Source of the DNA: an uncultured virus (IMG/VR IMGVR_UViG_3300044639_000797)
Lineage: Duplodnaviria > Heunggongvirae > Uroviricota > Caudoviricetes
Strand: one strand, 5' to 3'
Length of the DNA: 64,000 nucleotides
IMG/VR virus record: IMGVR_UViG_3300044639_000797
Shown here: positions 3 through 64,000 of the stretch, one piece after another
Numbering within the stretch: position 1 is the first letter of the stretch
How the letters are laid out: each line of letters starts with the position of its first letter
Translations under genes and position numbers: made by a program
The notes under the pieces: generated by a model
What the model was told of the DNA's origin: nothing
Databases searched by the model: none
The model's input: the letters and a program-made list of their open reading frames with translations, nothing else

Positions 3-1466
3 CAGTATACTTATATCCCCGGTTTCGGTGCTTATGGCTACGGGCTTATTCATCTTATTGGTGGCTTTGCTAAATCTGCAACTTCTATTGTCAGACAGTT
101 AATTGATGCAGGTACACTAAGTAACCTGCCCGGAGGCTTAAAATCTAGGGGTCTTAGGATTAAAGGTGATGATACTCCGATCATGCCGGGTGAATGGAGA
201 GACGTTGATGTTCCATCTTCTAATATTAAAGACAACATATTACCGCTCCCTTATAAAGAACCAAGCCAAACACTATTCACACTATTACAGAATGTAGTAG
301 AAGAAGGCCGTAGATTAGCAGCAGTTGCTGATGTTAAGCTGGATAACATGAATGGAGAGGCGCCAGTAGGTACTACACTGGCTATCTTGGAAAGAACTCT
401 AAAGGTGATGTCGGCTGTTCAGGCTCGTGTTCACTACTCGATGGAGCAAGAGTTTAAGTTAATTGCAGCGTTGGTAAGAGACTATACTGCCCCTGCTTAC
501 GACTATATGCCAGAGTTTGATGCTGAACCCTCAGCTAAGAAAGAAGACTACGATAAAGTTGATATTATTCCAGTCTCTGATCCAAATGCTAGTACTATGG
601 CGCAAAGGATCATTCAGTACCAAGCAGCTATCCAGTTAGCCCAACAATCTCCACAAATATATAACTTACCTGTACTACATCGACAAATGCTTGAAGTTAT
701 GGGCATTAAAGACGCGGATAAGATCGTTATTGTGGAAGAAGATCAAAAACCAACTGATCCTGTAACAGAGAATATGGACATTCTTAAAGCTAAACCTGTA
801 AAAGCGTTCATAGAACAAGACCACGATGCGCACTTAACAGTGCATAACAGTATGCTAACTGACCCTAAGATAGCGGCAGCAATGGGGCAAAACCCTCAAG
901 CTTCTGTCATAAAACAGGCGTTAATGGCACATATCATGGAGCATGTGGGCTTCCAATACCGTAGAGGTATAGAGACTCAATTAGGGACTACATTACCTCC
1001 AGAAGATGCAGAGTTAAGCCCTGAAATGGCAGTACAACTGGCAAAACTATCTGCTGATGCAGCTAAACAACTACTACAAGCGAACCAAGCTGAACAAGCC
1101 CAACAAACGGCTCAACAGCAAGCACAAGACCCTGTAGTACAGATGCAGCAGAAAGAGTTACAACTTAAACAGCAAGAACTCAATGATAAGAAAGAGATCG
1201 AGCTTAAAAAGATGGATACTCAGAAAGAGATAGCGATGTTGAACAACGAGGCTAAATTGCTGGTACAAAATGAAGATGCTAAGGTTCAAGGTCTATTTAA
1301 AGGGTTAGATATGGCGACTCAACAAATAGAAGCGCAAAGACAAGCTGCGGTTCCACCTATGCCTTTAGCTGGGCCACAAGGGGCTCCAGCAGCGCCTCCA
1401 CCACCACAAGGAGCGCCAGCACCTCCACCACCGCAACAGGCGCCTACGCCTAGGGGGCCTCTTTAA
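3..1466 (+). CDS. Portal protein, C-terminal part (5' part is at the window end)
   Basis: Frame is open from nt 3 (QYTYIPGFGAYGYGLIHLIGG...LIDAGTLSNLPGG) into the listed 427-aa ORF. Long Q-rich coiled coil and Pro-rich tail. Follows terL when the window is circularised. Confidence 0.85.
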   Translation, partial: QYTYIPGFGAYGYGLIHLIGGFAKSATSIVRQLIDAGTLSNLPGGLKSRGLRIKGDDTPIMPGEWRDVDVPSSNIKDNILPLPYKEPSQTLFTLLQNVVEEGRRLAAVADVKLDNMNGEAPVGTTLAILERTLKVMSAVQARVHYSMEQEFKLIAALVRDYTAPAYDYMPEFDAEPSAKKEDYDKVDIIPVSDPNASTMAQRIIQYQAAIQLAQQSPQIYNLPVLHRQMLEVMGIKDADKIVIVEEDQKPTDPVTENMDILKAKPVKAFIEQDHDAHLTVHNSMLTDPKIAAAMGQNPQASVIKQALMAHIMEHVGFQYRRGIETQLGTTLPPEDAELSPEMAVQLAKLSADAAKQLLQANQAEQAQQTAQQQAQDPVVQMQQKELQLKQQELNDKKEIELKKMDTQKEIAMLNNEAKLLVQNEDAKVQGLFKGLDMATQQIEAQRQAAVPPMPLAGPQGAPAAPPPPQGAPAPPPPQQAPTPRGPL

Positions 1467-1467
1467 C
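1452..1467 (+). promoter_or_regulatory. RF2(prfB)-type programmed +1 frameshift site AGGGGG-CCT-CTT-TAA-C
   Basis: Internal SD 3 nt upstream of a CTT-stop-C shift site, the same layout as E. coli prfB AGGGGG-TAT-CTT-TGA-C. The +1 frame is open to 1815. Confidence 0.8.
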
Positions 1468-1815
1468 TTTGCAGAAGGAGGGGTAGCGCACTCTGATTAT
1501 GATATAGAAGCCTATAATAACGCGGTTAGAGCAGGACAAATAGAAGATACCATGGCGAGTGGAGGCCATGGACCTGACACTTTTAAACTACCTAACCATC
1601 CAACTTTTTCAGAAGAAAGTATGCACTCCACATCAGAAACTCCGGGAGGCAAATGGCAAAAAGGGGGTAATGATAGGTGGTATTTCCATCCTTCGGAGCA
1701 TAATTTAAAAAATAGGCCCCCTGAAGAACTAAGTAAATATTTTATTAATAAAGAGAAAAAAGGAACTCACTTAGTGCTACCCACAGGCCAACTTATTGAA
1801 GGAACTAAAGAATGA
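1465..1815 (+). CDS. Conserved-looking phage domain (DYD...PDTFKLPNHPTFS), probably translated as a +1 frameshift extension of the portal
   Basis: Frame reads NFAEGGVAHSDYDIEAYNN... for 29 codons before the ATG at 1552, which lacks a well-spaced SD. Confidence 0.7.
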   Translation, partial: NFAEGGVAHSDYDIEAYNNAVRAGQIEDTMASGGHGPDTFKLPNHPTFSEESMHSTSETPGGKWQKGGNDRWYFHPSEHNLKNRPPEELSKYFINKEKKGTHLVLPTGQLIEGTKE

Positions 1816-5618: not shown

Positions 5619-6230
5619 GTGTCAAAGACCAAACAGGAGATAGCAATGTACAGTCAATACCCAACAACTCGTAAAGAAGCTCAAGAAACTAAAGCAACTC
5701 ATTACTTTACAGGATTACCCTGTAAACATGGACACATAGCCCTGCGTAAAACCAAAGGCACATGCATGGACTGTTTAAAAATAGAATGGGAAGAGACCAA
5801 TGCTAAACGTGCGCTACTACCTAAATCTGAGGCTAGTAAAAAAGCAGGTAAAAAATACTACGAAAATAATAAGGAGCTAGTTAAATCTAAAGCTCTTGGT
5901 CGTTCTTTAGAGGACAGAAAAAGGTATAGGGATAAATGGGCAAAGGATAACCCTGAATTGCGTAAAGCTAATACCAAACACCGTAGAACAAAACATAAAC
6001 AAGCTACACCTAAATGGCTAACTCAAGAACAGAAAACTGCGATTAAACAGTTTTATCTGGACGCTATGGCGGCTACTAGAGTTACAGGTACGCCCTATGT
6101 TGTAGACCATATAATACCTCTACGTGGTAAGCTCGTAAGCGGTTTGCATGTACCGTGGAATTTAGCGGTGATAACCCGTGAAGAAAACCATATTAAGGCC
6201 AACAAATTAATTGACACTCAACCAAAATAA
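5619..6230 (+). CDS. Free-standing HNH endonuclease (start probably the ATG at 5646)
   Basis: YFTG.PC.HGH...C..C zinc motif and VDHIIPL...SGLHVPWNL...EN..K.N. Confidence 0.85.
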   Translation: MSKTKQEIAMYSQYPTTRKEAQETKATHYFTGLPCKHGHIALRKTKGTCMDCLKIEWEETNAKRALLPKSEASKKAGKKYYENNKELVKSKALGRSLEDRKRYRDKWAKDNPELRKANTKHRRTKHKQATPKWLTQEQKTAIKQFYLDAMAATRVTGTPYVVDHIIPLRGKLVSGLHVPWNLAVITREENHIKANKLIDTQPK

Positions 6231-7353: not shown

Positions 7354-7656
7354 ATGACTCGCCCATCACGCGGTATTTCTGATATACAAGAAAAGGCTAG
7401 AGGAAACAAAATGACTAAGTTAAAAGCGGGCATGGTCCCATTAAAGAAAAAAGATACTCTTAAAGCTAAAGTAACTAAACGTGCTCCAACTCCAGACATG
7501 GCTCAAATAGGTGCTATGCGTTCTGCTGGTTTAGGCGCTGTTCCGGGTTCTCCAACTTCAGCTATGAAAAAAGGCGGATCTTGCAGAGGTATGTACAAAG
7601 GTGGTAGTGTCGATGGCATTACTAAAAAAGGCAAAACTCGCGGGAAGATAATCTAA
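7354..7656 (+). CDS. Small basic KKGG-motif protein
   Basis: MKKGG, MYKGG and C-terminal DGITKKGKTRG. Confidence 0.7.
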   Translation: MTRPSRGISDIQEKARGNKMTKLKAGMVPLKKKDTLKAKVTKRAPTPDMAQIGAMRSAGLGAVPGSPTSAMKKGGSCRGMYKGGSVDGITKKGKTRGKII

Positions 7657-8363
7657 TGGCTACATACCGTAAACCTGCACGAGCTCCTATGGCTAAACGT
7701 GCACCTGCACCAGCTCCTAAGGCTACAACTGGCGGTAATATGGCTAAACGTGCACCTGCACCAGCTCCTATGGCTACAACTGGCGGTAATATGGCTAAAC
7801 CTGCACCTGCACCAGCACCAGCTACAACTGGCGGTAATATGGCTAAACCTGCACCTGCACCTGCACCTGCACCAGCTCCTATGGCTACAACTGGCGGTAA
7901 TATGGCTAAACCTGCACCTGCACCTGCACCAGCTCCTATGGCTACAACTGGCGGTAATATGGCTAAACCTGCACCTGCACCTGCACCTGCACCTGCACCA
8001 GCTACAACTGGTGGTAATATGTCAGGTATGGCTATGGGTGCAACTATGGGTGCAAAACCCGTTGGTACTACTGGCGGTAATATGGCGCTACCTGTTAAGG
8101 GTTCACCGGGAGGTCCAGCAAATACAGGTGTTGTGCCTCCGTCACGAGCTCCTATGGCTACAACTGGTGGTAATATGTCAGGTATGGCTATGGGTGCAAC
8201 TATGGGTGCAAAACCCGTTGGTACTACTGGTGCTGGCGGTTGGAAAAAAGGTGGTAAAGTTAAAACTAAATGCTACGCTAAAGGGGGTTCTGTTAGAACT
8301 TCTGCCTCTTCAAGAGGTGATGGATGTGCTACTAAAGGTCACACTAAAGGAGCAATGCGCTAA
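7656..8363 (+). CDS. Low-complexity Pro/Ala repeat protein with a KKGG C-terminal module
   Basis: MAK(PA)nMATTGGN repeats. C-terminus YAKGGSV...SSRGDGCATKGHTKG. Confidence 0.75.
   Translation: MATYRKPARAPMAKRAPAPAPKATTGGNMAKRAPAPAPMATTGGNMAKPAPAPAPATTGGNMAKPAPAPAPAPAPMATTGGNMAKPAPAPAPAPMATTGGNMAKPAPAPAPAPAPATTGGNMSGMAMGATMGAKPVGTTGGNMALPVKGSPGGPANTGVVPPSRAPMATTGGNMSGMAMGATMGAKPVGTTGAGGWKKGGKVKTKCYAKGGSVRTSASSRGDGCATKGHTKGAMR
7689..8232 (+). repeat. Intragenic tandem repeats
   Basis: Six ATGGCTAAAC...(CCTGCA)n...GCTACAACTGGYGGTAAT units, plus a ~70-nt duplication (about 8001-8073 and 8157-8230). Confidence 0.9.
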
Positions 8364-8884
8364 TGGCTGCAGTAACACGACTTGATAAACCTAAAGCCCC
8401 CTACGCTGAAAGAGAAAACTTATCTTTTATAACTCGAAAAGGCGGTGAACGTGATAGTACATCACGAGTTTCTGGTATGACTAAAAAAGCTGCTATCAAA
8501 CAAGCTAAAAGTGATGCAGAAGACGGTATGGATCGTAATTACGAAGGTATGAAAACAGCGTACGATAAGTACAAATTATCAGAAGACCCTTCATCAAAAA
8601 AAATAACTGAGCAGTTGCGTAGAGGTTCTGTAAAAGCAGAAAAACCACTAAGTAAAGCATTACAAGCTGCGGACGATGCCTATTATGCAACTTCAGAAGA
8701 AGTTGACAGTAGGTTGAAAAAAGAAGCATCCCCTAAACCGGGCGAGTACGACTTTAAAAAAGGTGGTAAAGTTAAGGCTAAACCAATGAAGGCTTTTGCT
8801 AAAGGCGGTTCTGTTAAGTCATCAGCTTCTTCAAGAGGCGATGGCTGTGCTACTAAGGGCCACACTAAAGGAAGGATATACTAA
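8363..8884 (+). CDS. Basic protein with the same C-terminal KKGG module
   Basis: FKKGGKVK...FAKGGSVKSSASSRGDGCATKGHTKG, near-identical to the upstream ORF's tail. Confidence 0.75.
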   Translation: MAAVTRLDKPKAPYAERENLSFITRKGGERDSTSRVSGMTKKAAIKQAKSDAEDGMDRNYEGMKTAYDKYKLSEDPSSKKITEQLRRGSVKAEKPLSKALQAADDAYYATSEEVDSRLKKEASPKPGEYDFKKGGKVKAKPMKAFAKGGSVKSSASSRGDGCATKGHTKGRIY

Positions 8885-9306
8885 TGGCTGGGGGAGGACA
8901 AGGCTACGCAGATGGTGGAATTATAGGTCAAGGGTTTGGGAACCAACAGGCGAACCCAACACCGCAGTTTAATACTCAGAGCGCGTACAATAACTTTGCC
9001 TCTCCTAATTCCAATTTTATGAGTTACCCGCAACAAGGGCAACCTAACCAACCACAGAGTATGTCCAATACGTTACCACCTGTACAAAGTGCTCCTAGTC
9101 CTGATATGGGCGGGGTGTCTCCAAGTAACAATATGGGGTATGATAATAGCGGTAGTGATGCAGGTATAGGTGGACAACCAGTGACTCAAATGCAATCTCC
9201 ATTACAGGGACAACCACCAAGTCTATCTCAGTATATGCCTCAACAAGGACTACAAATTCAGGGCAATCCTACTTCGGTGCCCGTACAACGACCACAACAA
9301 AGGTAA
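8884..9306 (+). CDS. Gln/Pro/Ser-rich disordered protein
   Basis: Coupled ORF with an N-terminal YADGG. Confidence 0.65.
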   Translation: MAGGGQGYADGGIIGQGFGNQQANPTPQFNTQSAYNNFASPNSNFMSYPQQGQPNQPQSMSNTLPPVQSAPSPDMGGVSPSNNMGYDNSGSDAGIGGQPVTQMQSPLQGQPPSLSQYMPQQGLQIQGNPTSVPVQRPQQR

Positions 9307-10304: not shown

Positions 10305-10640
10305 ATGGGTACTCCGTTTGCTGGTGAGAAAAGAGCGTTTGGCTTCTGTGATCGTTGCGGGTTTAGATACGCATTAAAGAAACTGCACACCTATGTTATT
10401 ATAGGTAAACGGATAAATATGCGGGTATGTCCAGAGTGTATGGACAAAGTTGGTGGAGACCACCCACAAAACTGGGTTGGTATAATAGGTGCCCAAAAGG
10501 TAGCAAATGATCCACAGGCTCTACAAAACCCTAGACCGGATGTAAACTTAAACGCTTCTAGAGGTTTATTTGCTTTTAACCCTGTGGCGACACAGACTAT
10601 TACTACCACATTGAATGATGTGTTTATTACGATTACTTGA
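10305..10640 (+). CDS. Zn-finger protein
   Basis: CDRC...CPEC and DPQAL.NPRPD. Confidence 0.7.
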   Translation: MGTPFAGEKRAFGFCDRCGFRYALKKLHTYVIIGKRINMRVCPECMDKVGGDHPQNWVGIIGAQKVANDPQALQNPRPDVNLNASRGLFAFNPVATQTITTTLNDVFITIT

Positions 10641-10648
10641 GGTATACT

Positions 10649-10879
10649 ATGGCTAGTTTTGAAGGTTCAGCTAAAGACGTTAAAGAAGACAAAGTCCTTG
10701 CAAAGAAAAACAAGATGTCTATGTCTGACTGGGAGAAAAGCCCAAAAGACGCTAAGCATGACAAACAAAAATCTATGAAGGGTCTTAAAAAAGGTGGCAT
10801 TACATCTATGGATGCTAAGAAGATGGGTCGTAATGTAGCTCGTGCTATGAATCAAAAAAGTTCAGGTAGAGGTCGATAA
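10649..10879 (+). CDS. Small basic protein
   Basis: ATG after SD GAGGT. Lys-rich, contains LKKGG. Confidence 0.7.
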   Translation: MASFEGSAKDVKEDKVLAKKNKMSMSDWEKSPKDAKHDKQKSMKGLKKGGITSMDAKKMGRNVARAMNQKSSGRGR

Positions 10880-11046
10880 TGGCTAAGCAACATATTGAAG
10901 GATCTGCTGAGTATAAAGGCGTTAAATCTGTACCCACTCCTGTAGGTAACGGATACCCTGTGCAAATCGAAAACAAAAAGACAGTGAAAGTACGTGGTAC
11001 TGGTGCGGCTACTAAAGGCACTATGGCTTCTAGTAAAATGGGCTAA
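10879..11046 (+). CDS. 55-aa basic protein (not in ORF track)
   Basis: MAKQHIEG...VRGTGAATKGTMASSKMG. TAATG coupling. Shares the RG.G.ATKG motif with the 7656 and 8363 ORFs. Confidence 0.7.
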   Translation: MAKQHIEGSAEYKGVKSVPTPVGNGYPVQIENKKTVKVRGTGAATKGTMASSKMG

Positions 11047-18607: not shown

Positions 18608-20134
18608 ATGGCATATAACACTACTGCAAAAGGCTTATCAGCTCTAGGACGTAACGGAGACAACACCCTCTTACATGTTAGCAAAGACGAACTAGCTGGG
18701 CTTCAATCACTAATAGGCCACAAACTTCCAACTAACCCACATACAGGGCTACAAGAGGCGTTTGACTTAAAGAACATAATTGCCATGCTAGGTATAGGTG
18801 CTCTTGGTGCTGCTACAGGCGGTGCAGCGTTAGCCGCCGCTCCCGGAATTACTACTATGGGTGCAACAGCATTAGGCGCAGGTGAAGGAGCTCTATTAGG
18901 GGGCGCATATAGCGCATCTCAAGGTAAAGGGTTTGGGGCAGGTGCATTAGGCGGTGCTCTTTCTGGTGGGCTTGGTGCTTATGGTGGTAGTAACTTGCCG
19001 GGCGCTTCTACTGCTCAGACAACCACATCTATGTCAGAACCCGCAGATGCTTTATTGACTACACCTAAAATAGCCGCCGCTCCTGAGTTACCCTATGGGT
19101 ATGATAAGTTTTTACCTGCTGCCCCTGATAAATTTACTGTTCCTTATGGAGCAGGTATAAAAACTCCAACAGAGTTTAGTTTAGGGGACACTTCTAAGTA
19201 CCAATCCCTTATTAATGATATCCCTGATGTAACTGCTAAAGATATACCGCTCACAGATAAGTTATCTACCGCTACAGGGAACCAACTCTCTGCTATGGGT
19301 AATAAGGACAACATGTGGGAGTGGGGTAAAATGGCTGGTATGGGGTCTCTTTTAGGCTCTAGTGCTCAAGATATGGTAGAGCAGAACCAAGCTATGGCTA
19401 ACCAAATACGCCAAGAAAAACTTGCAGCGCAAGCTAATGAACAGCAACAGCAGCAGTACTTTAAAGATTTAGGTTATCCATTAGCCTCGCTTTCTGATCT
19501 TAATAACTCTGACACCCAGTCACAATTTGACTATTATAAAAACATAATTAACCCTAAACAAGGGTATGCTGCGGGGGGTCCTATAACTATGACCCTACCT
19601 ATGGGGGGTGTGCCTGTAACTGCAACTTTCCCTGCTAGATATGCGTCTGAGTTAGAACAAATAGACATTCCGCACGAGATTAACCAAGCTCAAAATGTAG
19701 CTAAAGAAGGGACAGGAATGGCGAATGGGGGGTATATCAACACTCAACCTGTAAACCCAAACGCCTTTTACCCGCAGTCTCAAATACACAGTGCACAACC
19801 ATACCCTGCAGCTACACCACAACGCCATGAAATAATAGAAGGGTTTGAAGATGGCGGTATGTTAGACGGTCCGGGGGATGGTATGTCTGATGACATCCCT
19901 GCTAATATAGATGGTGAAGAAGAGATTAGGTTGGCTGATGGTGAGTTTGTTGTACCGCCTGATTTAGTACGTATGTTGGGTTTTGGCGATCCTGAAAAAG
20001 GTGCTGAATTATTAGACAACCTGCTACCCTTAGTAAGACAAGCGGCTCATGGTAAGAAAGAACAGATTAAACAAGATGCAGGTAAGTTAGCTGCTGAAAA
20101 GATGTTAGTTAGAGCGGCAAAAGGTAAGGCATGA
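18608..20134 (+). CDS. Putative internal/ejection protein
   Basis: GR.GD..L.H and NP.TGL.E N-terminus, glycine-zipper hydrophobic region, GPGDGMSDDIPA...LADGEFVVP C-terminal domain. Confidence 0.6.
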   Translation: MAYNTTAKGLSALGRNGDNTLLHVSKDELAGLQSLIGHKLPTNPHTGLQEAFDLKNIIAMLGIGALGAATGGAALAAAPGITTMGATALGAGEGALLGGAYSASQGKGFGAGALGGALSGGLGAYGGSNLPGASTAQTTTSMSEPADALLTTPKIAAAPELPYGYDKFLPAAPDKFTVPYGAGIKTPTEFSLGDTSKYQSLINDIPDVTAKDIPLTDKLSTATGNQLSAMGNKDNMWEWGKMAGMGSLLGSSAQDMVEQNQAMANQIRQEKLAAQANEQQQQQYFKDLGYPLASLSDLNNSDTQSQFDYYKNIINPKQGYAAGGPITMTLPMGGVPVTATFPARYASELEQIDIPHEINQAQNVAKEGTGMANGGYINTQPVNPNAFYPQSQIHSAQPYPAATPQRHEIIEGFEDGGMLDGPGDGMSDDIPANIDGEEEIRLADGEFVVPPDLVRMLGFGDPEKGAELLDNLLPLVRQAAHGKKEQIKQDAGKLAAEKMLVRAAKGKA

Positions 20135-20922
20135 ACTCCGTTCAAACACAAGGAATCGTAAACTCTATTGATGAGCTGGCTGTATGCATACAGGCTAAAG
20201 TGGACAGTGGTGAACTACAGAGTATGGAAACTACACTAAAGCACTACCACACAAAAGAGTTATACGGGCGTAGGATTATTGTCCCCGCAGGGTGCATCTT
20301 TACAACAGCAGTTCATAAGGTAAATCACATATCTGTAGCTCTAAGAGGGCGTATAACAATGTTAAATGCTGAAGGTGAATCTCAAGAAGTAATTGCTCCT
20401 GATATGTTTGTAACACCAGCTGGAACGCACCGTGTAGTTTATGTGCATGAAGAAGTGGAATTTGCTACTATACACGCATGTACTGAACAAGATGATACTA
20501 AAGTAGCTGAAGTGTTAACCTTTAACACAATGGCAGAGTACCAACGGTACGACTATATACAAGCTATTACAGAGGCGGGGTTTACAGATATGCAAGCTAG
20601 AGCACTTTCAGAGAATCTAGACGACCAAGTACCTATGCCAGAGAATGAGAAACTAACTTATATAGCCCCCTCTGCTATTGAAGGGCAAGGTGTATTTGCT
20701 TCTGAAGATATACTTAGTGGTTCTCGTATAGCTCCCGGACGCATTGGGCAATTTAGAACCTCTGTTGGAAGATATGCAAATCATAGCTCATTCCCTAATA
20801 CACAGTACGTGCTGGCTGGAGATAATATAGACATGTACGCTATAAAAAAGATATACAAAAACGAAGAACTTACTGTGGACTACAGACAAGCTAACCGAGT
20901 AAGACTAGGAGCGGAACAATGA
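20131..20922 (+). CDS. Cupin-like domain fused to a SET-domain methyltransferase
   Basis: N-terminal His-rich cupin pattern (Y.R.I.VPAG...H...H...PAGT.R...TIH). C-terminal SET motifs S.IEG.GVFA, RYANHS..PN and EELTVDY. Confidence 0.85.
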   Translation: MNSVQTQGIVNSIDELAVCIQAKVDSGELQSMETTLKHYHTKELYGRRIIVPAGCIFTTAVHKVNHISVALRGRITMLNAEGESQEVIAPDMFVTPAGTHRVVYVHEEVEFATIHACTEQDDTKVAEVLTFNTMAEYQRYDYIQAITEAGFTDMQARALSENLDDQVPMPENEKLTYIAPSAIEGQGVFASEDILSGSRIAPGRIGQFRTSVGRYANHSSFPNTQYVLAGDNIDMYAIKKIYKNEELTVDYRQANRVRLGAEQ

Positions 20923-22022
20923 GTTTCTTAGTATCAGCAGCAGCAACAGCAGCATCTACGGCAGCAGTAGCAGGGATTGGGGCAACTGCAGGTCTGACTG
21001 CTGGAGCTGTTGGTATGACCGCAGGAGCTTTAGCTGGGGGTGCTACTGCAGGTGCATTAGGTGCAGGTGTAGGAGCAATATCAGCCGCCGCTCAAGGACA
21101 AGATGTTGGCAAAGGAGCCCTTATGGGAGCCGCTTCTGGTGTAGTTACCGCAGGTGTTGCTAGTGGGTTAGGTGCTGCAGGGGCAGGAACTTTGATTGCA
21201 GGTACTGTTGGTGGAGCTGCAGGTGGAGCTGCAGGAGCAGCCGCAGGTGGTGAAGATGTTGGTAAAGGCGCTATGATTGGAGGTGCTACAGGGGCTGTTA
21301 CTAGTGGGGTAGGGGAGTTAGGTGGGGCTGTAGCGGGGCCAACTACTCCGGTAGATGTAGCCCCTGTAACTCCTTCAGGTCCTATGTCTCCAACTCCTAC
21401 TAGTGAACTTTCTTCTCTTAATAATGTAGCTCCTGTAGACGCACCCATTTCAGGACCCATGAGCCCAAAAATACCGGGATCAATTCAACCTTCTCCTTCA
21501 AGTGACCTTTTTGCTTCTGCTTCTATCGCGCACCCAGTAGACGCTGCGGCTAAAGGACTAACTAATCTAACAGGTTCTTCTATAACAGGCGACCAACTTA
21601 GTGGAGGTCTTAAAGCCTTAACTGCAGGGGCTCTAACAGATTATGCTGGACACAGTATGGTAAATGCCGATGAAGCGGCTAAAAAAGCAAACGAACAAAA
21701 CGCAATAGGCGCAGCAAACTTTGCAAATCAGGATCAAGCAGCCATGTCAAATTTAAAAGGTTTAGGTTTTAACTCTCCATCAGGACCACTATCTTCATTA
21801 GGTAATATAGGTAAAGCTACTGGAGGTCTTACAGCTCTGGCACATGGAGGTCAAGTTCCTCTTAAAGATGGCGCCTATATTATCCCTGCTGATGTAGTAA
21901 GCGCACTAGGTAATGGCTCCTCTAAAGCGGGTGCAGAGTTCTTAAGACAGCTTATGATGGAAGTGCGTAAAGAAGCAGTTAACATTCAAGGCTTAGGAGC
22001 GGCTAAAAAACATGGTGCTTAA
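20919..22022 (+). CDS. Gly/Ala-rich putative ejection protein
   Basis: Glycine-zipper hydrophobic N-terminus. C-terminal L.DG.YIIPADVVS.LGNGSS.AG resembles the 18608 C-terminus. Confidence 0.6.
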   Translation: MSFLVSAAATAASTAAVAGIGATAGLTAGAVGMTAGALAGGATAGALGAGVGAISAAAQGQDVGKGALMGAASGVVTAGVASGLGAAGAGTLIAGTVGGAAGGAAGAAAGGEDVGKGAMIGGATGAVTSGVGELGGAVAGPTTPVDVAPVTPSGPMSPTPTSELSSLNNVAPVDAPISGPMSPKIPGSIQPSPSSDLFASASIAHPVDAAAKGLTNLTGSSITGDQLSGGLKALTAGALTDYAGHSMVNADEAAKKANEQNAIGAANFANQDQAAMSNLKGLGFNSPSGPLSSLGNIGKATGGLTALAHGGQVPLKDGAYIIPADVVSALGNGSSKAGAEFLRQLMMEVRKEAVNIQGLGAAKKHGA

Positions 22023-22425
22023 AGTACAGCAAGTACCCTTAGAATACGTAAACCAAACATGGGATTACGTTGAGCCTTTTATAGAAGCAGCCCTTGAGTT
22101 TTCTGCTGGAGACTATAATGCAGAAGAGATACGGGTGATGTTAGCTCTAGGGTCTTGGCACCTTATTGTTGCTACTGATGAAGAAAATACTATACATGGA
22201 GCTTTAGTTGTGTCTTATTTCAATAGACCCGCTGACAGAGTTGGATTTGTAGTGGCTATTGGTGGTAAACTAGTATCTAACAGAGCTACATGGGCTCAAT
22301 TTGAAGACATTCTCCGGTTAAACGGTGCTACTTATTTAGAAGGTGCAGGTCGTGAATCTATAGTTAAGCTATGGTCTCGATACGGCATGAAACCCAAATA
22401 CACCATTATTGGTAAAAAACTTTAG
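22012..22425 (+). CDS. GNAT-like small protein
   Basis: 137-aa alpha/beta pattern ending G.GR.....LW.RYG. Position among internal virion genes. Confidence 0.45.
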   Translation: MVLKVQQVPLEYVNQTWDYVEPFIEAALEFSAGDYNAEEIRVMLALGSWHLIVATDEENTIHGALVVSYFNRPADRVGFVVAIGGKLVSNRATWAQFEDILRLNGATYLEGAGRESIVKLWSRYGMKPKYTIIGKKL

Positions 22426-22436
22426 AGATTAGAGCT

Positions 22437-24710
22437 ATGACATTCAAACCAAGTAGTATTCGTAAACTATTTTTCACTTATTTCTGCCCTACATTCTACG
22501 GCAGCCCCCCAGCAGCGCCTTCAAATACTACATCTACTCAGACTATCAATCAGTCGCCGTGGCAGAACCCAGTATACCAAGCTCTTATGTTAGGAACTGC
22601 GGATAAACCCGGACCTATTACTAGTATGCTACGTTCTAGTGCAGAACAAACAGCGGCATGGGACGCTATGAAAGCGGGCGGTTATTCTCCTGTGCCTACA
22701 CAAGCTCAATATACTGCGCCTTATACCCCTTCAACGGCGGTTGCTCCTACAACACCTGCTCCAACAGCGGCGCCTGTAGAACAACAAACAGCAGCTCGTG
22801 GTGGAATAATGTCCTTACAAGGTTACGCATCTGGAGGACTTACAGCAAAGCAAAAAGCCGCTCAAATTGCTAAACTACAAAAAGCAGTGAAAGGAGAAAC
22901 CGCCGCGCAACACGCCGCAAGGGTTCAAAAAATAATAGATTTAGGTGGGGCTCCTAATGAGGCTAATACTTCTTTCATGCAGAACTACACTGATGCTTCT
23001 GCTAATAAATATGAAGGCAAAATTGACCCTGCAACAGGAGTAGAATCTTTAAGACCTAGAGGTGCTACAGAATCAGCAGAGGATTATAAGAAATATACGG
23101 ATACATCTATAGCTGCAGGAGCCTCTCCTACTGAAGAAATGACTAAAGCTACCGCAGCAGCCAACTTAAAAAACACTATTGGCACCTCTATAACAAATGT
23201 AACTGCTGATACTACACCTGTATATGATGAAGCGGGAAATATAACAGGGTACAAATCTACAAACGAAGATTTTCAAAAACTTCAAGAAGCGGCTAGAAAA
23301 CTACAAACTCCAGAGCAGTTTGGGGCTGCTACTGACTTATATAAGTCTTCTGCAGCGGGGCTTCAAGCCGCAGCGGGGTATAAACCTACTGATATAGCCG
23401 CTCAAAAAGCAGACGTAGCTAAAGCAGAAGCTACAGGTTATGATGCGACTAAAATGAATGCTCCTGCTGATATAGCTGCTCAAAAGGCAGACGTGGCTAC
23501 TATGCAAGGTGCAGGGGATGTAAGTGCGAACCAACTACAACAATATCAAATGCAAGGTCCGGGAGCAGTTACTGCACCCACAGCGGAAGCTTCTCAAATG
23601 GCAGGGCCTAAGTCTTGGATAGATAAAGGCACTTCAGAAGCTTACATGTCTCCTTACATGCAGAACGTAGTTGACATACAAAAGAGAGAAGCTAATAGAG
23701 ACTACCAGCAACAACTTAATCAGTTAAATGCTCAATCAGTGCAAGCAGGTGCTTTTGGTGGGTCTCGTCAAGCTATACAACAAGCAGAAGCGGCTCGTAA
23801 CCAAGCTACTAGATTAGGTGATATTGAGGCTAAAGGACTGCAAGAAGCTTATGCATCAGGTATGGGGCAGTTTACTAATGAGCAAGGTCAGCAATTACAA
23901 GCGGGTCAAGCTAATTTAAGTGCAGCTCAACAAACTACTTTGGCTAATCAAGCGGCTCAAATACAAGCTATGATGGCTAATCAAGGTATGGACTACAATA
24001 CTGCGGTTCAAAATCTACAGGCTCAATTAGGTATTCAAAATACTCAAGCAGGGCAAGATTTGCAAGCGGCGTTAGCTAATCAACAGATCCAACAGCAAAC
24101 TCAAGGCGCTAATATGGCGGCTCAGAACCAAGCACAACAAGCCTACGTTCAACAAGCTCTACAAGCAGCTCAAGCTAATCAAGGTGCGGCTCTAACTGTT
24201 GAGCAACAAAACCAAATAGCTCAAAATGCTTCAGCTCAATATAACGCTACTAATGCACAAAATGTAAACTTAACTAACGCCGCAACTCAAAATACGGCTA
24301 ACCAACAATTAGTAGCACAACAATTAGCCGCTCAACAAGCTAATCAACAAGCGGGGTTAACCGCTAACCAACAAGGTATTTCTGCACTTCAAGGTGTTGG
24401 TCAAAATGCCGCCGGTTTAACGAGTACAGGCACAGCGGCAAACCAAGCGGGTATTGCAAACTTAGGGGCACAAGGTCAAGTTGTTCAAGCACAACAAGCT
24501 CTATCTCAAGCAGGGGTTAATGCTAACCAACAAACCGCTCAAAATGCTCTTGACTTCACTAATCAAGCTAATGCGGGGGTTGTTGCAGGGGTAAATGCTC
24601 AACCTGTGAGTGGAGGGACATCAACAAGTCAAGCCGTTAATAACCCAGCTACTTGGGCACGTGGTGGACTCATTAAAAACGGTAAAGTAAGCAAAAGAGG
24701 TGTGAAATAA
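22437..24710 (+). CDS. Putative DNA pilot/ejection protein
   Basis: YMSPY.QNV and AGAFGGSR motifs, long Q/A/N-rich coiled coil. Confidence 0.65.
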   Translation: MTFKPSSIRKLFFTYFCPTFYGSPPAAPSNTTSTQTINQSPWQNPVYQALMLGTADKPGPITSMLRSSAEQTAAWDAMKAGGYSPVPTQAQYTAPYTPSTAVAPTTPAPTAAPVEQQTAARGGIMSLQGYASGGLTAKQKAAQIAKLQKAVKGETAAQHAARVQKIIDLGGAPNEANTSFMQNYTDASANKYEGKIDPATGVESLRPRGATESAEDYKKYTDTSIAAGASPTEEMTKATAAANLKNTIGTSITNVTADTTPVYDEAGNITGYKSTNEDFQKLQEAARKLQTPEQFGAATDLYKSSAAGLQAAAGYKPTDIAAQKADVAKAEATGYDATKMNAPADIAAQKADVATMQGAGDVSANQLQQYQMQGPGAVTAPTAEASQMAGPKSWIDKGTSEAYMSPYMQNVVDIQKREANRDYQQQLNQLNAQSVQAGAFGGSRQAIQQAEAARNQATRLGDIEAKGLQEAYASGMGQFTNEQGQQLQAGQANLSAAQQTTLANQAAQIQAMMANQGMDYNTAVQNLQAQLGIQNTQAGQDLQAALANQQIQQQTQGANMAAQNQAQQAYVQQALQAAQANQGAALTVEQQNQIAQNASAQYNATNAQNVNLTNAATQNTANQQLVAQQLAAQQANQQAGLTANQQGISALQGVGQNAAGLTSTGTAANQAGIANLGAQGQVVQAQQALSQAGVNANQQTAQNALDFTNQANAGVVAGVNAQPVSGGTSTSQAVNNPATWARGGLIKNGKVSKRGVK

Positions 24711-26368
24711 TGAGTGCTCCAGTAACTAATCAATCTTATATCCAGCAAAATAACCAGCTTTTTGATTGGGCAAAAACAGCTACCCCACAGCAGATAGAGG
24801 CGGCTAAACACGGACTACCAAAAGACTCTCCTCTGTTATTAGCTATAGGTATGGGGGTTCAATACCAACAACAAGCTAGGGCTCCACACCCACAGGCTCC
24901 ACAAAAAACTGTAATGGAGCAAAAGTTAGGTGAGTTTGCGCAGACTTCACCACAAGGACTACCATCTGTAGGTGGGAACCAAATGGCTATGCAACAAGTA
25001 GACCCAATGCGAGGGGCAGGAATAGGCGTAGCCCCTGAAAATACTCCCGCTCCACAACAAGCGGCTACAGGTGGGTTAGTTGCACTGGCTCAAGGTGGTG
25101 AGGTTAGGCGTTTTGCGGTTGGAGGAGGTCCTCTAAGTAATCTTAATATAGACCCTAATGATCCAAACTTAGAAAACCTATTTAACGAAGAAGCTGCAGC
25201 AGCAGATGTTGCTGTTGCTAATGAAGCGTTAGGCGGTACTCCAGACGCTAGTAGTCTTCAGTACGGTGATAATAAGTACGCTAAAGATAGAGCAGTCGCA
25301 ACACATAAGAATTTATTAAGTGAAGCTAAAACAAAAAAACAAGCCCCTTCTGAGAAAGGTATTGCATCGTTGCCGGGAGGAATTTATGTACCTTCTGATA
25401 TATCTAAACTAAGTGAGTATTTAACTCCTAAAGGATCTAAAGTAGACCCTAACTCCTATAATGCAGATGCGATAGTAGCTAATATGTTAAACAAGGATAC
25501 TACCCCAAAATATAGTGAACAGCCTATAGGTAAACACGACATACTATTTGCTCCTGCGGATACAAGCTCAGCTGCACGTAATGCATCATCGCCTACTGCT
25601 AAAGGAGAAACTTACACATCTGCTGATACTGATGCCGCTATTGCAGAGATTGCTAGACTACGTGGTCCTGAAGCGGATATATCTGAAGAAGTAGCTGCAG
25701 CTAAGGAAGCAACCAGAAGCGCTAACAAAGAAAAATGGGGCACTGCGTTAGCTCAAGGTATAGGAGGTATGTTATCTGCTCAGACTCCGTACATGAGCCA
25801 AGCATTAGGTGCAGGGTTGTTATCAGGCGTATCAGGGTATCAGTCAGGCGCTAAAGACGAAGCTGCTGCAGAGAAAGAACAAAGAGCCCTACAGATGGCT
25901 CAGAAGAAAGCAAACCTTGCAGGGCATAGAGAAGCTACAGATATATGGTTAGCACAGAATGCCGAACAACAAAAAGCAGAAGCGGCAGCTAGAGCTAAAG
26001 CACATGAGCTAGGGTATAATAGAGAAACTGAGCTTATGAAAGGGAAACAGACTGGGTTGTTCGGTCAGTTGAATAAACAAGCAGATATTACGGCTAACTT
26101 AGAACTTGAAGGGTTTAAGCAAGGCAATAGAATGGAACAAATTGCTTATGAAGCTCAGTTAAAACAAATTGCTGCTGAAGCAGATCCAAAGACTAGACAA
26201 GCTTTAGTAACATCATTAGTGGCAGCAGGATCAAAAGGAGGACTTACCCTAGATGATGTATACGGTGATTTAGATAGGTGGATGAATTATGTAAATCAAG
26301 GGTCTCAAGCTGCACCTCAATCAGGAGGGTTTGGGCTGCCTTTAAAAGGTGGGATGTTCTTAAAATAA
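24710..26368 (+). CDS. Putative ejection protein
   Basis: Ala-rich helical protein with a hydrophobic hairpin, in the ejection cluster. Confidence 0.55.
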   Translation: MSAPVTNQSYIQQNNQLFDWAKTATPQQIEAAKHGLPKDSPLLLAIGMGVQYQQQARAPHPQAPQKTVMEQKLGEFAQTSPQGLPSVGGNQMAMQQVDPMRGAGIGVAPENTPAPQQAATGGLVALAQGGEVRRFAVGGGPLSNLNIDPNDPNLENLFNEEAAAADVAVANEALGGTPDASSLQYGDNKYAKDRAVATHKNLLSEAKTKKQAPSEKGIASLPGGIYVPSDISKLSEYLTPKGSKVDPNSYNADAIVANMLNKDTTPKYSEQPIGKHDILFAPADTSSAARNASSPTAKGETYTSADTDAAIAEIARLRGPEADISEEVAAAKEATRSANKEKWGTALAQGIGGMLSAQTPYMSQALGAGLLSGVSGYQSGAKDEAAAEKEQRALQMAQKKANLAGHREATDIWLAQNAEQQKAEAAARAKAHELGYNRETELMKGKQTGLFGQLNKQADITANLELEGFKQGNRMEQIAYEAQLKQIAAEADPKTRQALVTSLVAAGSKGGLTLDDVYGDLDRWMNYVNQGSQAAPQSGGFGLPLKGGMFLK

Positions 26369-61596: not shown

Positions 61597-61698
61597 ATGA
61601 TGAGGCCTGAAGATGACGTACGTTTAGCGATTATAAGTTGGGCGGTATTAGTTGCAGGGCTTGTTGCCCTTTATTTTAACCCTCTAATGCATTGTTGA
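61597..61698 (+). CDS. 33-aa membrane peptide
   Basis: SD GAGGAG. MMRPEDDVRLAIISWAVLVAGLVALYFNPLMHC. TGATG coupling to terL. Confidence 0.55.
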   Translation: MMRPEDDVRLAIISWAVLVAGLVALYFNPLMHC

Positions 61699-63182
61699 TG
61701 AAAGATAAACTAGCAGCTTTACCTGAATCTGACCGTATACACCTTGCGCAGCTTATAAAAGAGCTAAAAAAGCGTAAGGCTAGGGAAGATGCACAGACAA
61801 GCTTCTTATCTTTTGTGCAGGAAGTGTGGCCTAGTTTTATTTATGGGCGGCACCATGCGCGTATAGCGAAAGAATTTGAACGAGTGGCTAATGGTGAGTG
61901 CAAAAGACTGATTATTAACTTAGGTCCTCGTCATACTAAGAGTGAGTTCTCTTCTTACTTGTTACCTGCGTGGTTTTTAGGGCGCTTTCCAGAGAAAAAG
62001 GTCATTCAGTGTTCGCATACGGCAGAGCTTGCGGTAGGTTTTGGTCGTAAGGTACGTAACTTAGTAGGGTCGGACGAGTATCAGTCCATATTTCCGGGTG
62101 TAGGGCTACAAACAGACTCTAAAGCAGCGGGGCGATGGAACACAAACGCGGGAGGGGACTATTTCGCTATCGGTATCAGTGGTGCTGTAACGGGTAAAGG
62201 TGCGGATCTGTTGATAATTGACGACCCTCACTCAGAAGGCGATGCGGTTATAGCTCAGTACAATCCTGAAGTGTACGATAAGGTGTATAGTTGGTACTCA
62301 TCTGGTCCTCGTCAGCGGTTACAGCCCGGTGGGGCTATTGTTATAGTTATGACTCGTTGGAGTCTACGTGACTTGACAGGGCAGATATTAGAGTCTGCAG
62401 CAATGGGTGGCGACAAGTGGGAGGTGATTGAGTTCCCAGCTATATTACCTAGTGGTAAGCCGTTATGGCCTGAGTTCTGGCCCATTGAAGAGTTAATGGC
62501 GGTAAAGGCTGAGATACCTAGCGGCAAATGGCAAGCACAGTACCAGCAGCAGCCCACATCTGAGTCTACGGCTATCGTTAAGAGAGAGTGGTGGCGAGAG
62601 TGGGAGGGGAAAGAGCCACCTGACTGTGACTTCCTGTTGATGTCGATGGATACGGCGTTTGAGAAAAAGACCAGTGCTGACTATAGTGCCATCGTGATAT
62701 TTGGTGTGTGGAACAACCCAGAGGATGGGGACCAACCGAACTTAATACTGTTAGAGGCTTGGCGAGAACGGCTAGAGTTCCCTGATTTAAAGCAACGGAC
62801 ATTAGAGTTTTATCAAGAGTGGGAGCCAGATGGTGTTATTATTGAGAAGAAAGCATCAGGAGCTCCACTAATATATGAACTAAGACGTATGGGCATTCCT
62901 GTACAAGAGTTTACACCATCACGCGGACAAGATAAGATATCACGACTTAATGCAGTATCTGATATGTTTGCTTCAGGTAAAGTCTGGGCACCGTCTACAC
63001 GCTGGGCTGAAGAAGTGATTGACGAGGTGGCTTCGTTTCCATCGGGTAGGAATGATGACTTTGTAGATGCTGTAACATTAGCCCTTGCACGGTTTAGGTC
63101 TGGGGGCTTCATTGGCTCCGCTAAAGATAAGGATATTGATGAGGACAGCTGGCTGATAAAGAAACGCGCTAACTATTATTAA
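61698..63182 (+). CDS. terL: Terminase large subunit
   Basis: GPRHTKS Walker A, TG.GAD.LIIDD Walker B, TRW coupling motif, RNase H-like DTA...DYS, IE.KASG, DD.VDA. Confidence 0.95.
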   Translation: MKDKLAALPESDRIHLAQLIKELKKRKAREDAQTSFLSFVQEVWPSFIYGRHHARIAKEFERVANGECKRLIINLGPRHTKSEFSSYLLPAWFLGRFPEKKVIQCSHTAELAVGFGRKVRNLVGSDEYQSIFPGVGLQTDSKAAGRWNTNAGGDYFAIGISGAVTGKGADLLIIDDPHSEGDAVIAQYNPEVYDKVYSWYSSGPRQRLQPGGAIVIVMTRWSLRDLTGQILESAAMGGDKWEVIEFPAILPSGKPLWPEFWPIEELMAVKAEIPSGKWQAQYQQQPTSESTAIVKREWWREWEGKEPPDCDFLLMSMDTAFEKKTSADYSAIVIFGVWNNPEDGDQPNLILLEAWRERLEFPDLKQRTLEFYQEWEPDGVIIEKKASGAPLIYELRRMGIPVQEFTPSRGQDKISRLNAVSDMFASGKVWAPSTRWAEEVIDEVASFPSGRNDDFVDAVTLALARFRSGGFIGSAKDKDIDEDSWLIKKRANYY

Positions 63183-63206: not shown

Positions 63207-64000
63207 ATGGCTGAAGTCCCAAACAACATATTTAAGGCAATGCAACCGCAGAGTCCCTTTTTAACAGAAGATGATGAAGCACCAATAGAGGTTAATATAG
63301 GGGATCCTATGGATCCTATTGATACTGAAGTTGATGTAGAGATGGAACAAGAGCCGGGGTTTGATGCGAACCTCGCGGAGTACATGGATGAGGCGGATAT
63401 GGCCTCGTTAGTAGCTGATTTGATGGATGACTTTAACAATGACAAGAACGCTCGTAAAGAGTGGGAGTCTACCTATATAGACGGCTTAGATTTGTTAGGT
63501 TTAAAAATTGAAGAGCGTTCAGAACCTTGGCAAGGCGCTTGTGGTGTATACCACCCCATGCTAACAGAAGCGGCTATCCGCTTTCAGTCTGAGATGATCT
63601 CTGAAACATTTCCTGCTCAGGGACCTGTAAAAGCCCGAATAATCGGTAAAGATGACCCTGATACCCAGAAGTCTGCGGAACGTGTTGTAGAAGACATGAA
63701 CTACCAGCTTACGGAAAAAATGACTGAGTTTAGACCTGAACACGAAAAGATGTTGTGGTCCTTAGCATTGGCAGGAGCCGCGTTTAAGAAAGTATATTTT
63801 GACCCCTCACTAAACCGTCAGGTAAGTATGTTTGTACCTGCAGAAGATCTTTATATACCCTATGGAGCCTCTGATGCACGTACTTCAGAGCGACTGACTC
63901 ATGTCATGCGTAAAACCAAGAATGATGTTAAGAAGCTACAGTATGCGGAGTTCTATCGTGATATAGACCTTGGTGAACCAACAAAAGACCTTGACGATAT
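63207..64000 (+). CDS. Portal protein, N-terminal part (runs off the window end; not in ORF track)
   Basis: MAEVPNN...NLAEY...R.EWE..Y..GLDLLG...PWQGACGVYHPML.EA..RFQ...FPA.GPVK...MNYQLT...G.AFKKVYFD, open to 64000. Confidence 0.85.
   Translation, partial: MAEVPNNIFKAMQPQSPFLTEDDEAPIEVNIGDPMDPIDTEVDVEMEQEPGFDANLAEYMDEADMASLVADLMDDFNNDKNARKEWESTYIDGLDLLGLKIEERSEPWQGACGVYHPMLTEAAIRFQSEMISETFPAQGPVKARIIGKDDPDTQKSAERVVEDMNYQLTEKMTEFRPEHEKMLWSLALAGAAFKKVYFDPSLNRQVSMFVPAEDLYIPYGASDARTSERLTHVMRKTKNDVKKLQYAEFYRDIDLGEPTKDLDD

Follow-up and report, generated by a model that had tools for sequence, protein, structure and literature searches.

We found that the portal gene of an uncultured freshwater phage very probably ends in a programmed +1 ribosomal frameshift site of the prfB type, placed at the portal stop codon. 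In the 64,000-nt stretch of DNA analyzed here (hereafter the window), which makes up most of a ~64 kb genome, the 3′ end of the portal frame holds every element of the full cassette that a preliminary description of this DNA had pointed out (1452–1467, + strand, as are all features below unless noted): an internal Shine-Dalgarno (SD)-like AGGGGG (1452–1457) located 3 nt 5′ of the shift codon; the 3-nt spacer (1458–1460), which reads CCT here and AGT, AAA or TCT in relatives; the shift site CTT-T (1461–1464; CTT at 1461–1463); and the portal stop TAA followed by C at position +4 (1464–1467; stop at 1464–1466, C at 1467), which is TAG-C in five other junctions. The +1 frame (1465–1815) is intact, as had been reported, and its 116 codons encode a 116-aa passenger, P0001, whose translation yields a confident alpha/beta model over residues 8–116. 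It starts with a module-boundary motif, F-A-E-G-G (1468–1482), recognized by motif comparison. The first in-frame ATG comes at codon 30 (1552–1554); gene callers start there and give an 87-aa product, but this codon is not conserved and, in agreement with the earlier account, is not preceded by a well-spaced SD (the closest SD-like word is AGGA, 15 nt 5′). The frameshift reading offered in that account is supported by conservation of the cassette, by in-frame fusions in relatives, and by a conserved passenger core upstream of Met30.

The genes of the region run in the order terminase (61692–63182), portal (63207 to the window end plus 1–1466), a 61-aa gene, GroES, a scaffold-like gene and the capsid gene. 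The 3′ part of the portal gene (3–1466, frame open throughout) matches the portal family phrog_1216 (E = 6e-13), the 5′ part occupies 63207–64000, and the full-length protein has 833 aa in a matching contig (L006), while a PDB sequence search with the portal returned nothing below E = 0.25. The two ends of the window (64000 and 1) both lie inside the portal gene and are out of frame with each other, so some portal codons must be missing between them. A long helix is predicted at portal residues 686–792 in a poor model (pLDDT 37.5 for the full-length portal), and the residues from 793 on are predicted, at low confidence, to be disordered; the C-terminus is a low-complexity linker rich in Pro, Ala and Gln (1345–1451), delimited by the tails of relatives and by a contig that joins 1423 to 1825. 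The next gene (1812–1997, 61 aa) overlaps the passenger stop (ATGA) and directly follows the portal in passenger-less relatives. Portals of HTVC023P/HTVC027P, CRP-901/902, DSL-LC04 and MinM2 belong to the same family (41–45% identity) and show the same order of portal, small genes and GroES. The phage is contained in lake and river metagenomes (14 entries with at least half of its words, 6 of them possibly the source itself), and the window holds no tRNA genes.

The exact cassette occurs once in the window, and no second one was found there; with up to two mismatches allowed there were 6 matches vs. 2.63 expected, so only the exact match counts. From base composition, the cassette is expected at any one stop with a probability of ~4e-7 (2.5e-5 across ~62 genes), and the choice of AGG, GGG and CTT to encode Arg-Gly-x-Leu has a probability of 0.006 in this genome. 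Among the other window genes, 5/61 have a stop with C at +4, and TGA is the stop in 13/61 window genes. An identical junction is present on three IMG/VR contigs, and contigs of three sequencing runs (X7, X10 and X13) span it with no indel listed there, which argues against an assembly error. Read-through is excluded, since the 0 frame closes 9 codons beyond the portal stop. By eye, no competing SD is evident directly 5′ of the stimulator in the window, whereas two relatives (L059 and L076) have an SD-like stretch there; prfB genes avoid an SD at this place, according to the part of PMC5009743 available to us. No strong RNA structure was found downstream (−6.5 kcal/mol over 63 nt, without shuffle control). 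RNA run X15 yields no contig across the junction, which is uninformative as to expression.

The preliminary description had proposed aligning the portal 3′ ends of related phages, and here the SD, the 3-nt spacing, CTT, the stop and the long +1 frame proved to be kept together. We took the best 80 of 209 portal relatives, not selected by motif, of which 76 reach the stop. The cassette is present in 7 of them (5 distinct junctions), another 7 run on into a long in-frame extension, and 62 have a plain end. All 7 cassette loci combine SD, CTT and the +4 C with a +1 frame of 115–140 codons, whereas among the other 69 stops we found AGGGGG at this spacing in 0, CTT before the stop in 0, and a +1 frame of at least 60 codons in 0. 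The cassette is therefore a minority state among related portals. It was present in 0/78 of the portals that reach the stop in another, more distant set (the best 80 from at least 597) and was absent from the portal stop of the three cultured relatives checked (HTVC023P, MinM2 and DSL-LC04); no cultured phage with a portal cassette was found among the relatives checked. On a quick tree of 79 portal cores (in which L047, a fusion, is mislabelled as having no extension, and L050, L081 and L184 have no assigned 3′ state), cassette rows are spread over several branches, each adjoining a near-identical or close portal without a passenger. The cassette junctions probably share one origin and so are not independent of one another.

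In motif scans, with the stop left as TRR, the full pattern gave 10 matches in IMG/VR, all of them at portal stops (10/10). A scan in which the SD was not imposed gave 37 matches; nine of these end a frame of at least 100 codons, and all nine are portals with AGGGGG at the exact spacing, vs. 0/28 of the others (Fisher p = 8e-9; the nine loci represent 6 distinct junctions). A metagenome scan with a variable spacer yielded 35 matches, comprising 4 new portal cassette loci and 31 that are not portal cassettes; one of these 4 loci, L138, is assigned by its tail sequence alone because its contig begins close to the site. Across the 9 distinct junctions, AGG GGG, CTT and the +4 C are constant, the spacer takes the four forms given above, and the stop is TAA in 4, TAG in 5 and TGA in 0; 7 of the 9 came from searches that did not require the SD. 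When the downstream motif was left out, a long frame ended at 9/102 TAA sites and 8/73 TAG sites (with ~300 bases of flank for 22 of the TAA loci); a +1 frame of at least 60 codons followed at 8 TAA and 8 TAG long-frame sites, vs. 16/93 and 15/65 of the rest, and the portal family of the window accounts for 10 of these 16 long-frame sites. A GTDB scan gave 5 matches, none ending a frame of at least 100 codons, and hence no clue to the host.

Three unrelated passenger domains lie 3′ of the cassette: the P0001 type (the window, L004 and L023, with diverged forms in L095 and L149), a DUF6973 domain (L059, L076 and L138, with a Pfam match for L059), and a third type (L094). All passenger frames behind cassettes are intact. 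The expectation that the domain might be fused in frame in some relatives was confirmed for each of the three, in P0007–P0017 for the P0001 type (11 matches), in L043–L048 for DUF6973 and in L049 for the third type. Passenger and portal differ in their histories, as the passenger of L023 shares 89% identity with the in-frame tail of P0009, whose portal is distant, and the P0007 passenger is 93% identical to that of the window on a portal that is 58% identical. P0007 stays in frame through the junction, keeping Arg-Gly-Pro and having Phe at the Leu position. This protein and its twin P0019 may contain an indel error, since each comes from one 1,894-nt contig; no portal nearly identical to P0007 turned up when it was used as a query (best match 80% identity over 352 residues), and the metagenome scan with variable spacer returned no in-frame form like it.

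In run X13, a passenger-less variant exists beside the cassette form (1423 joined to 1825, on one contig). Sequence comparison shows the passenger to be both optional and exchangeable, since it is missing from most close relatives and unrelated domains take its place in others. We infer that the end of the linker, the cassette, the F/Y-A-x-G-G motif and the passenger would together form an optional 3′ module, swapped by recombination in the Pro-rich linker (1345–1451 being the probable recombination point); that the module is optional and exchanged follows from the differing histories, the spread over the tree, and the coexisting passenger-less variant. Separately, one cluster at 90% identity (P0015, P0030 and P0041) contains near-identical portals that either lack a tail, have one of the P0001 type, or have a fourth kind of in-frame tail, of 226 aa, attached after the same G-F-K-x-G-G joint.

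The P0001 domain is widespread, with 1,186 clusters at 50% identity (E of 0.001 or below), both as short proteins and inside large ones. Its invariant residues are H35, D38, K41, T47, S49, S52, G61, G62 and W64; the nearly invariant residues include Y12, D13, H45 and E97. The AlphaFold2 model (pLDDT 91.8) is an alpha/beta fold with three helices, in which residues 1–7 are disordered and helix 14–22 is confident. The conserved core includes residues 8–29, all upstream of ATG 1552, and from this and the confident helix the fold needs residues upstream of Met30. The preliminary description had considered that homologues might start the domain independently at the Met equivalent to 1552, and this is not what we see: across 95 aligned homologues, Met30 is kept in 8, Tyr12 in 92 and Asp13 in 86. 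The passenger had 0 matches in Pfam and PHROGs and 0 in a PDB profile search; Foldseek of the model against the PDB gave no match at E of 0.001 or below, and the best VIA-align hit had Z = 2.7 (rmsd 3.5, 58 aligned). These blank family and structure searches do not imply a new fold. Among predicted structures, the domain matched proteins of uncultured phages and crAss-like proteins, one of them a putative structural protein from Azobacteroides phage ProJPt-Bp1. Conservation of the His, Asp, Lys and Glu residues weakly hints at a possible ligand or catalytic site. We rejected toxin-domain names suggested for P0001 by the ESM Atlas, as their scores were 0.80 or less, which is chance level.

The F-A-E-G-G tag had been said to occur on other proteins of the virion region, and the [FYLMWK]-[AKE]-x-G-G form of it is indeed found in 8 other ORFs of the structural region (33 scanned). 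A motif of the x-x-x-G-G type lies within 75 residues upstream in 11/140 matches to the P0001 domain, in some cases inside the domain itself. The A-x-G-G motif would be a putative joint, docking site or cut site; a literature search on it returned nothing relevant. At 7354–9306, 10637–10879 and 18608–26368 the [FYLMWK]-[AKE]-x-G-G motif recurs, often two or three times, and its carriers are small basic proteins and putative internal virion proteins. The neighboring ORFs at 7656–8363 and 8363–8884 have nearly the same 25-residue C-terminal tail.

We weighed three other explanations of the junction. The +1 frame could belong to a separate small gene that starts, or is re-initiated, at ATG 1552, leaving the cassette as a coincidence or a relic; gene callers do give the 87-aa products from Met 1552 on many contigs, and many members of the P0001 family are short and apparently stand alone. 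We regard this as quite improbable. Besides the poorly placed AGGA, the Met is missing in L023, and the position of the first start codon varies among the cassette loci (codon 10, 14, 18, 22, 30, 42, 55 or 88); the conservation of Tyr12 and Asp13 and the confident helix 14–22 place part of the domain ahead of this start, and a separate gene leaves the presence of the cassette before three unrelated domains unexplained. In codons 1–29, synonymous vs. non-synonymous codon differences from the window number 5 vs. 12 to L004 and 1 vs. 11 to L023, counts that favor neither reading, although the +1 frame is the only one free of stops in all three sequences.

That the frame is changed by a polymerase rather than by the ribosome, through slippage in the G5 or T3 run, either during transcription or as a replication contingency locus, is in our view very unlikely. 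One G lost from the run would also give the +1 frame, and contingency loci are known in phages, as the accessible part of bioRxiv 10.1101/2025.10.21.683753 describes; by the same source both runs are below the 6-base threshold for such loci, and slippage has no need for CTT, the exact 3-nt spacing or the +4 C. No indel variant at the site is listed in the contigs (which drop rare variants), and P0007 has not lost a G, since Arg-Gly-Pro is kept. It is extremely unlikely that the site is a decayed in-frame fusion, in which a one-base insertion inactivated the passenger, or an assembly error. The existence of in-frame fusions, with P0007 one base off the cassette reading, and of the many relatives that manage without a passenger speaks for decay; against it, the same break and signals stand before three different domains with all passenger frames intact, and 40 of the 60 differences between the window and L004 passengers are at third codon positions. 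An assembly error is at odds with the contigs of three runs that match the window at the site.

We therefore return to a prfB-type shift as the preferred reading. After the model of E. coli prfB, the ribosome would pause while its P site holds CUU and its A site UAA, the anti-SD of the 16S rRNA would pair with AGGGGG, and tRNA-Leu would re-pair from CUU to UUU, so that translation would resume at AAC. Two products would result, the 833-aa portal and a 949-aa form comprising portal and passenger, in a ratio that would be set by release-factor competition, with RF1 and RF2 acting at UAA and RF1 alone at UAG. UAA is read by both factors, UAG by RF1 and UGA by RF2 (PMC12421855, from the text available); RF1 would thus be the common competitor, being the sole release factor that reads every version of the stop (TAA/TAG). 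In the accessible part of PMC5009743, the SD spacing for +1 shifts is given as 3 nt, and CUU-U is the most efficient of 32 shift sites even when the stop is UAG; TAG junctions should therefore work.

The likeness to prfB is close. The consensus of prfB in 8,164 genomes is AGGGGG, CTTT three bases on, a stop and C (PMC12421855, in the part available), and the portal cassette has AGGGGG, the 3-nt spacing, CTTT and stop-C in common with bacterial prfB, the gene of RF2 (PMC12421855; PMC5009743; both available in part). The stops differ: in those genomes the prfB stop is reported as TGA in 98.6%, TAA in 1.4% and TAG in none (PMC12421855, same part), whereas portal junctions have TAA or TAG and never TGA. 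The portal site also ends a structural gene, both of its products would be useful, and there would be no release-factor feedback. Of the RF2-style cassette proposed earlier, the prfB-like architecture consequently stands, and RF2 autoregulation does not, since UAG is used in 5 of 9 junctions and TGA in none, and the shifted product is a portal joined to a phage module, not RF2.

Recoded virion proteins offer a second comparison. As described in the accessible part of PMC5009743, some virion subunits of T7/T3 (gene 10), Lactobacillus A2 and Listeria PSA/A118/A500 gain a mobile C-terminal domain, as we propose here, and in these capsid and tail systems, as here, it depends on the phage whether the mobile domain is in frame or out of frame. 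Those phages use −1 sites, or +1 sites at CCC_UGA or at CCC with a pseudoknot, on capsid and tail genes and often for Ig-like domains (PMC5009743, same part); here, instead, the gene is a portal, the site is CUU-stop with an internal SD, and the passengers lack an Ig-like match. The portal has several traits of such extended virion proteins: it is a structural gene, it has an overlapping downstream frame without a start of its own, and the mobile domain is in frame in relatives. The word portal does not appear in the available text of the frameshift review (PMC5009743) or of the PRFect paper, and RECODE +1 sites with CUU before the stop are all prfB according to the latter, in the same text. 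Our literature search, for which subscription journals were mostly out of reach, returned no prfB-type cassette in a phage gene and no frameshifted portal in the texts available; the supplements of PMC3711429 and PMC10885494 could list phage cases. Frameshift extension of capsid and tail proteins and the prfB cassette are already known; distinctive here are the use of UAA/UAG, the swappable passengers, and a natural series in which the passenger is absent, shifted or fused.

As to function, we tentatively suggest that the site may serve to equip the portal ring with a small number of accessory cargo domains. Because relatives manage both without a passenger and with one on every subunit, the most likely role of the shift is to adjust how much of this accessory cargo is carried. 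P22 and crAss001 portals have a C-terminal barrel with cargo nearby (PMC4992974; PMC10172136; both available in part), and a long C-terminal helix is predicted here as well; the P22 barrel is thought to point into the head (PMC4992974, same part). If the helix forms a P22-like barrel, passenger copies would probably lie inside the head, a location that we infer, as the portal model is poor. The available text on these two portals mentions no recoded extension (PMC4992974; PMC10172136), and crAss-like structural proteins also contain the P0001 family. A broader proposal, which we consider doubtful, is that the prfB slip signal would be a portable, RF1-responsive (UAA/UAG) plug setting the number of cargo-bearing portal subunits, with the cargo released at A-x-G-G inside the head and delivered to the host, and with late loading and methylation possibly tied to the host release-factor supply through the methyltransferase cassettes described below. 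That the textbook prfB signal is conserved on a phage portal, with stops avoided by prfB itself, suggests that it is reusable for setting subunit stoichiometry, and portals would join the virion proteins that exist in two forms. Gene callers would then be cutting such passengers short at internal Met starts. The near-identical portals whose passenger is absent, shifted or in frame would be a natural series for testing what a tethered cargo domain does.

The same cassette was also seen in other genes. It splits phage C-5 cytosine DNA methyltransferase genes in L359:901–917, L400, L376:901–917 and L334, as AGGGGG-TCA-CTT-TAG-C (with TAA in L334). In L359 and L376 both frames match PF00145, and L334 is short and is assigned by likeness only; judging from the frames, a full C-5 cytosine methyltransferase would need a +1 shift. 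In L389:901–917, a gene resembling adenine/N4 DNA methyltransferases changes frame at AGGGGG-TGT-CTT-TAG-C, with the +1 frame matching PF01555, and in L425:901–917 (− strand) a 149-codon frame ends at AGGGGG-TGT-CTT-TAG-C, with a +1 frame of CHB_HEX_C_1/Fn3-associated repeats; each is a single locus.

Elsewhere in the window, a SET-domain protein (PF00856; 20131–20922), whose N-terminal part matches PHROG tail-fibre families, is encoded among the putative internal virion genes. Directly 3′ of the capsid gene lies a 203-aa ORF (5619–6230) that we take, by eye, to resemble an HNH endonuclease, and a 55-codon ORF (10879–11046), too short for the ORF listing, occupies the space that separates two structural genes.
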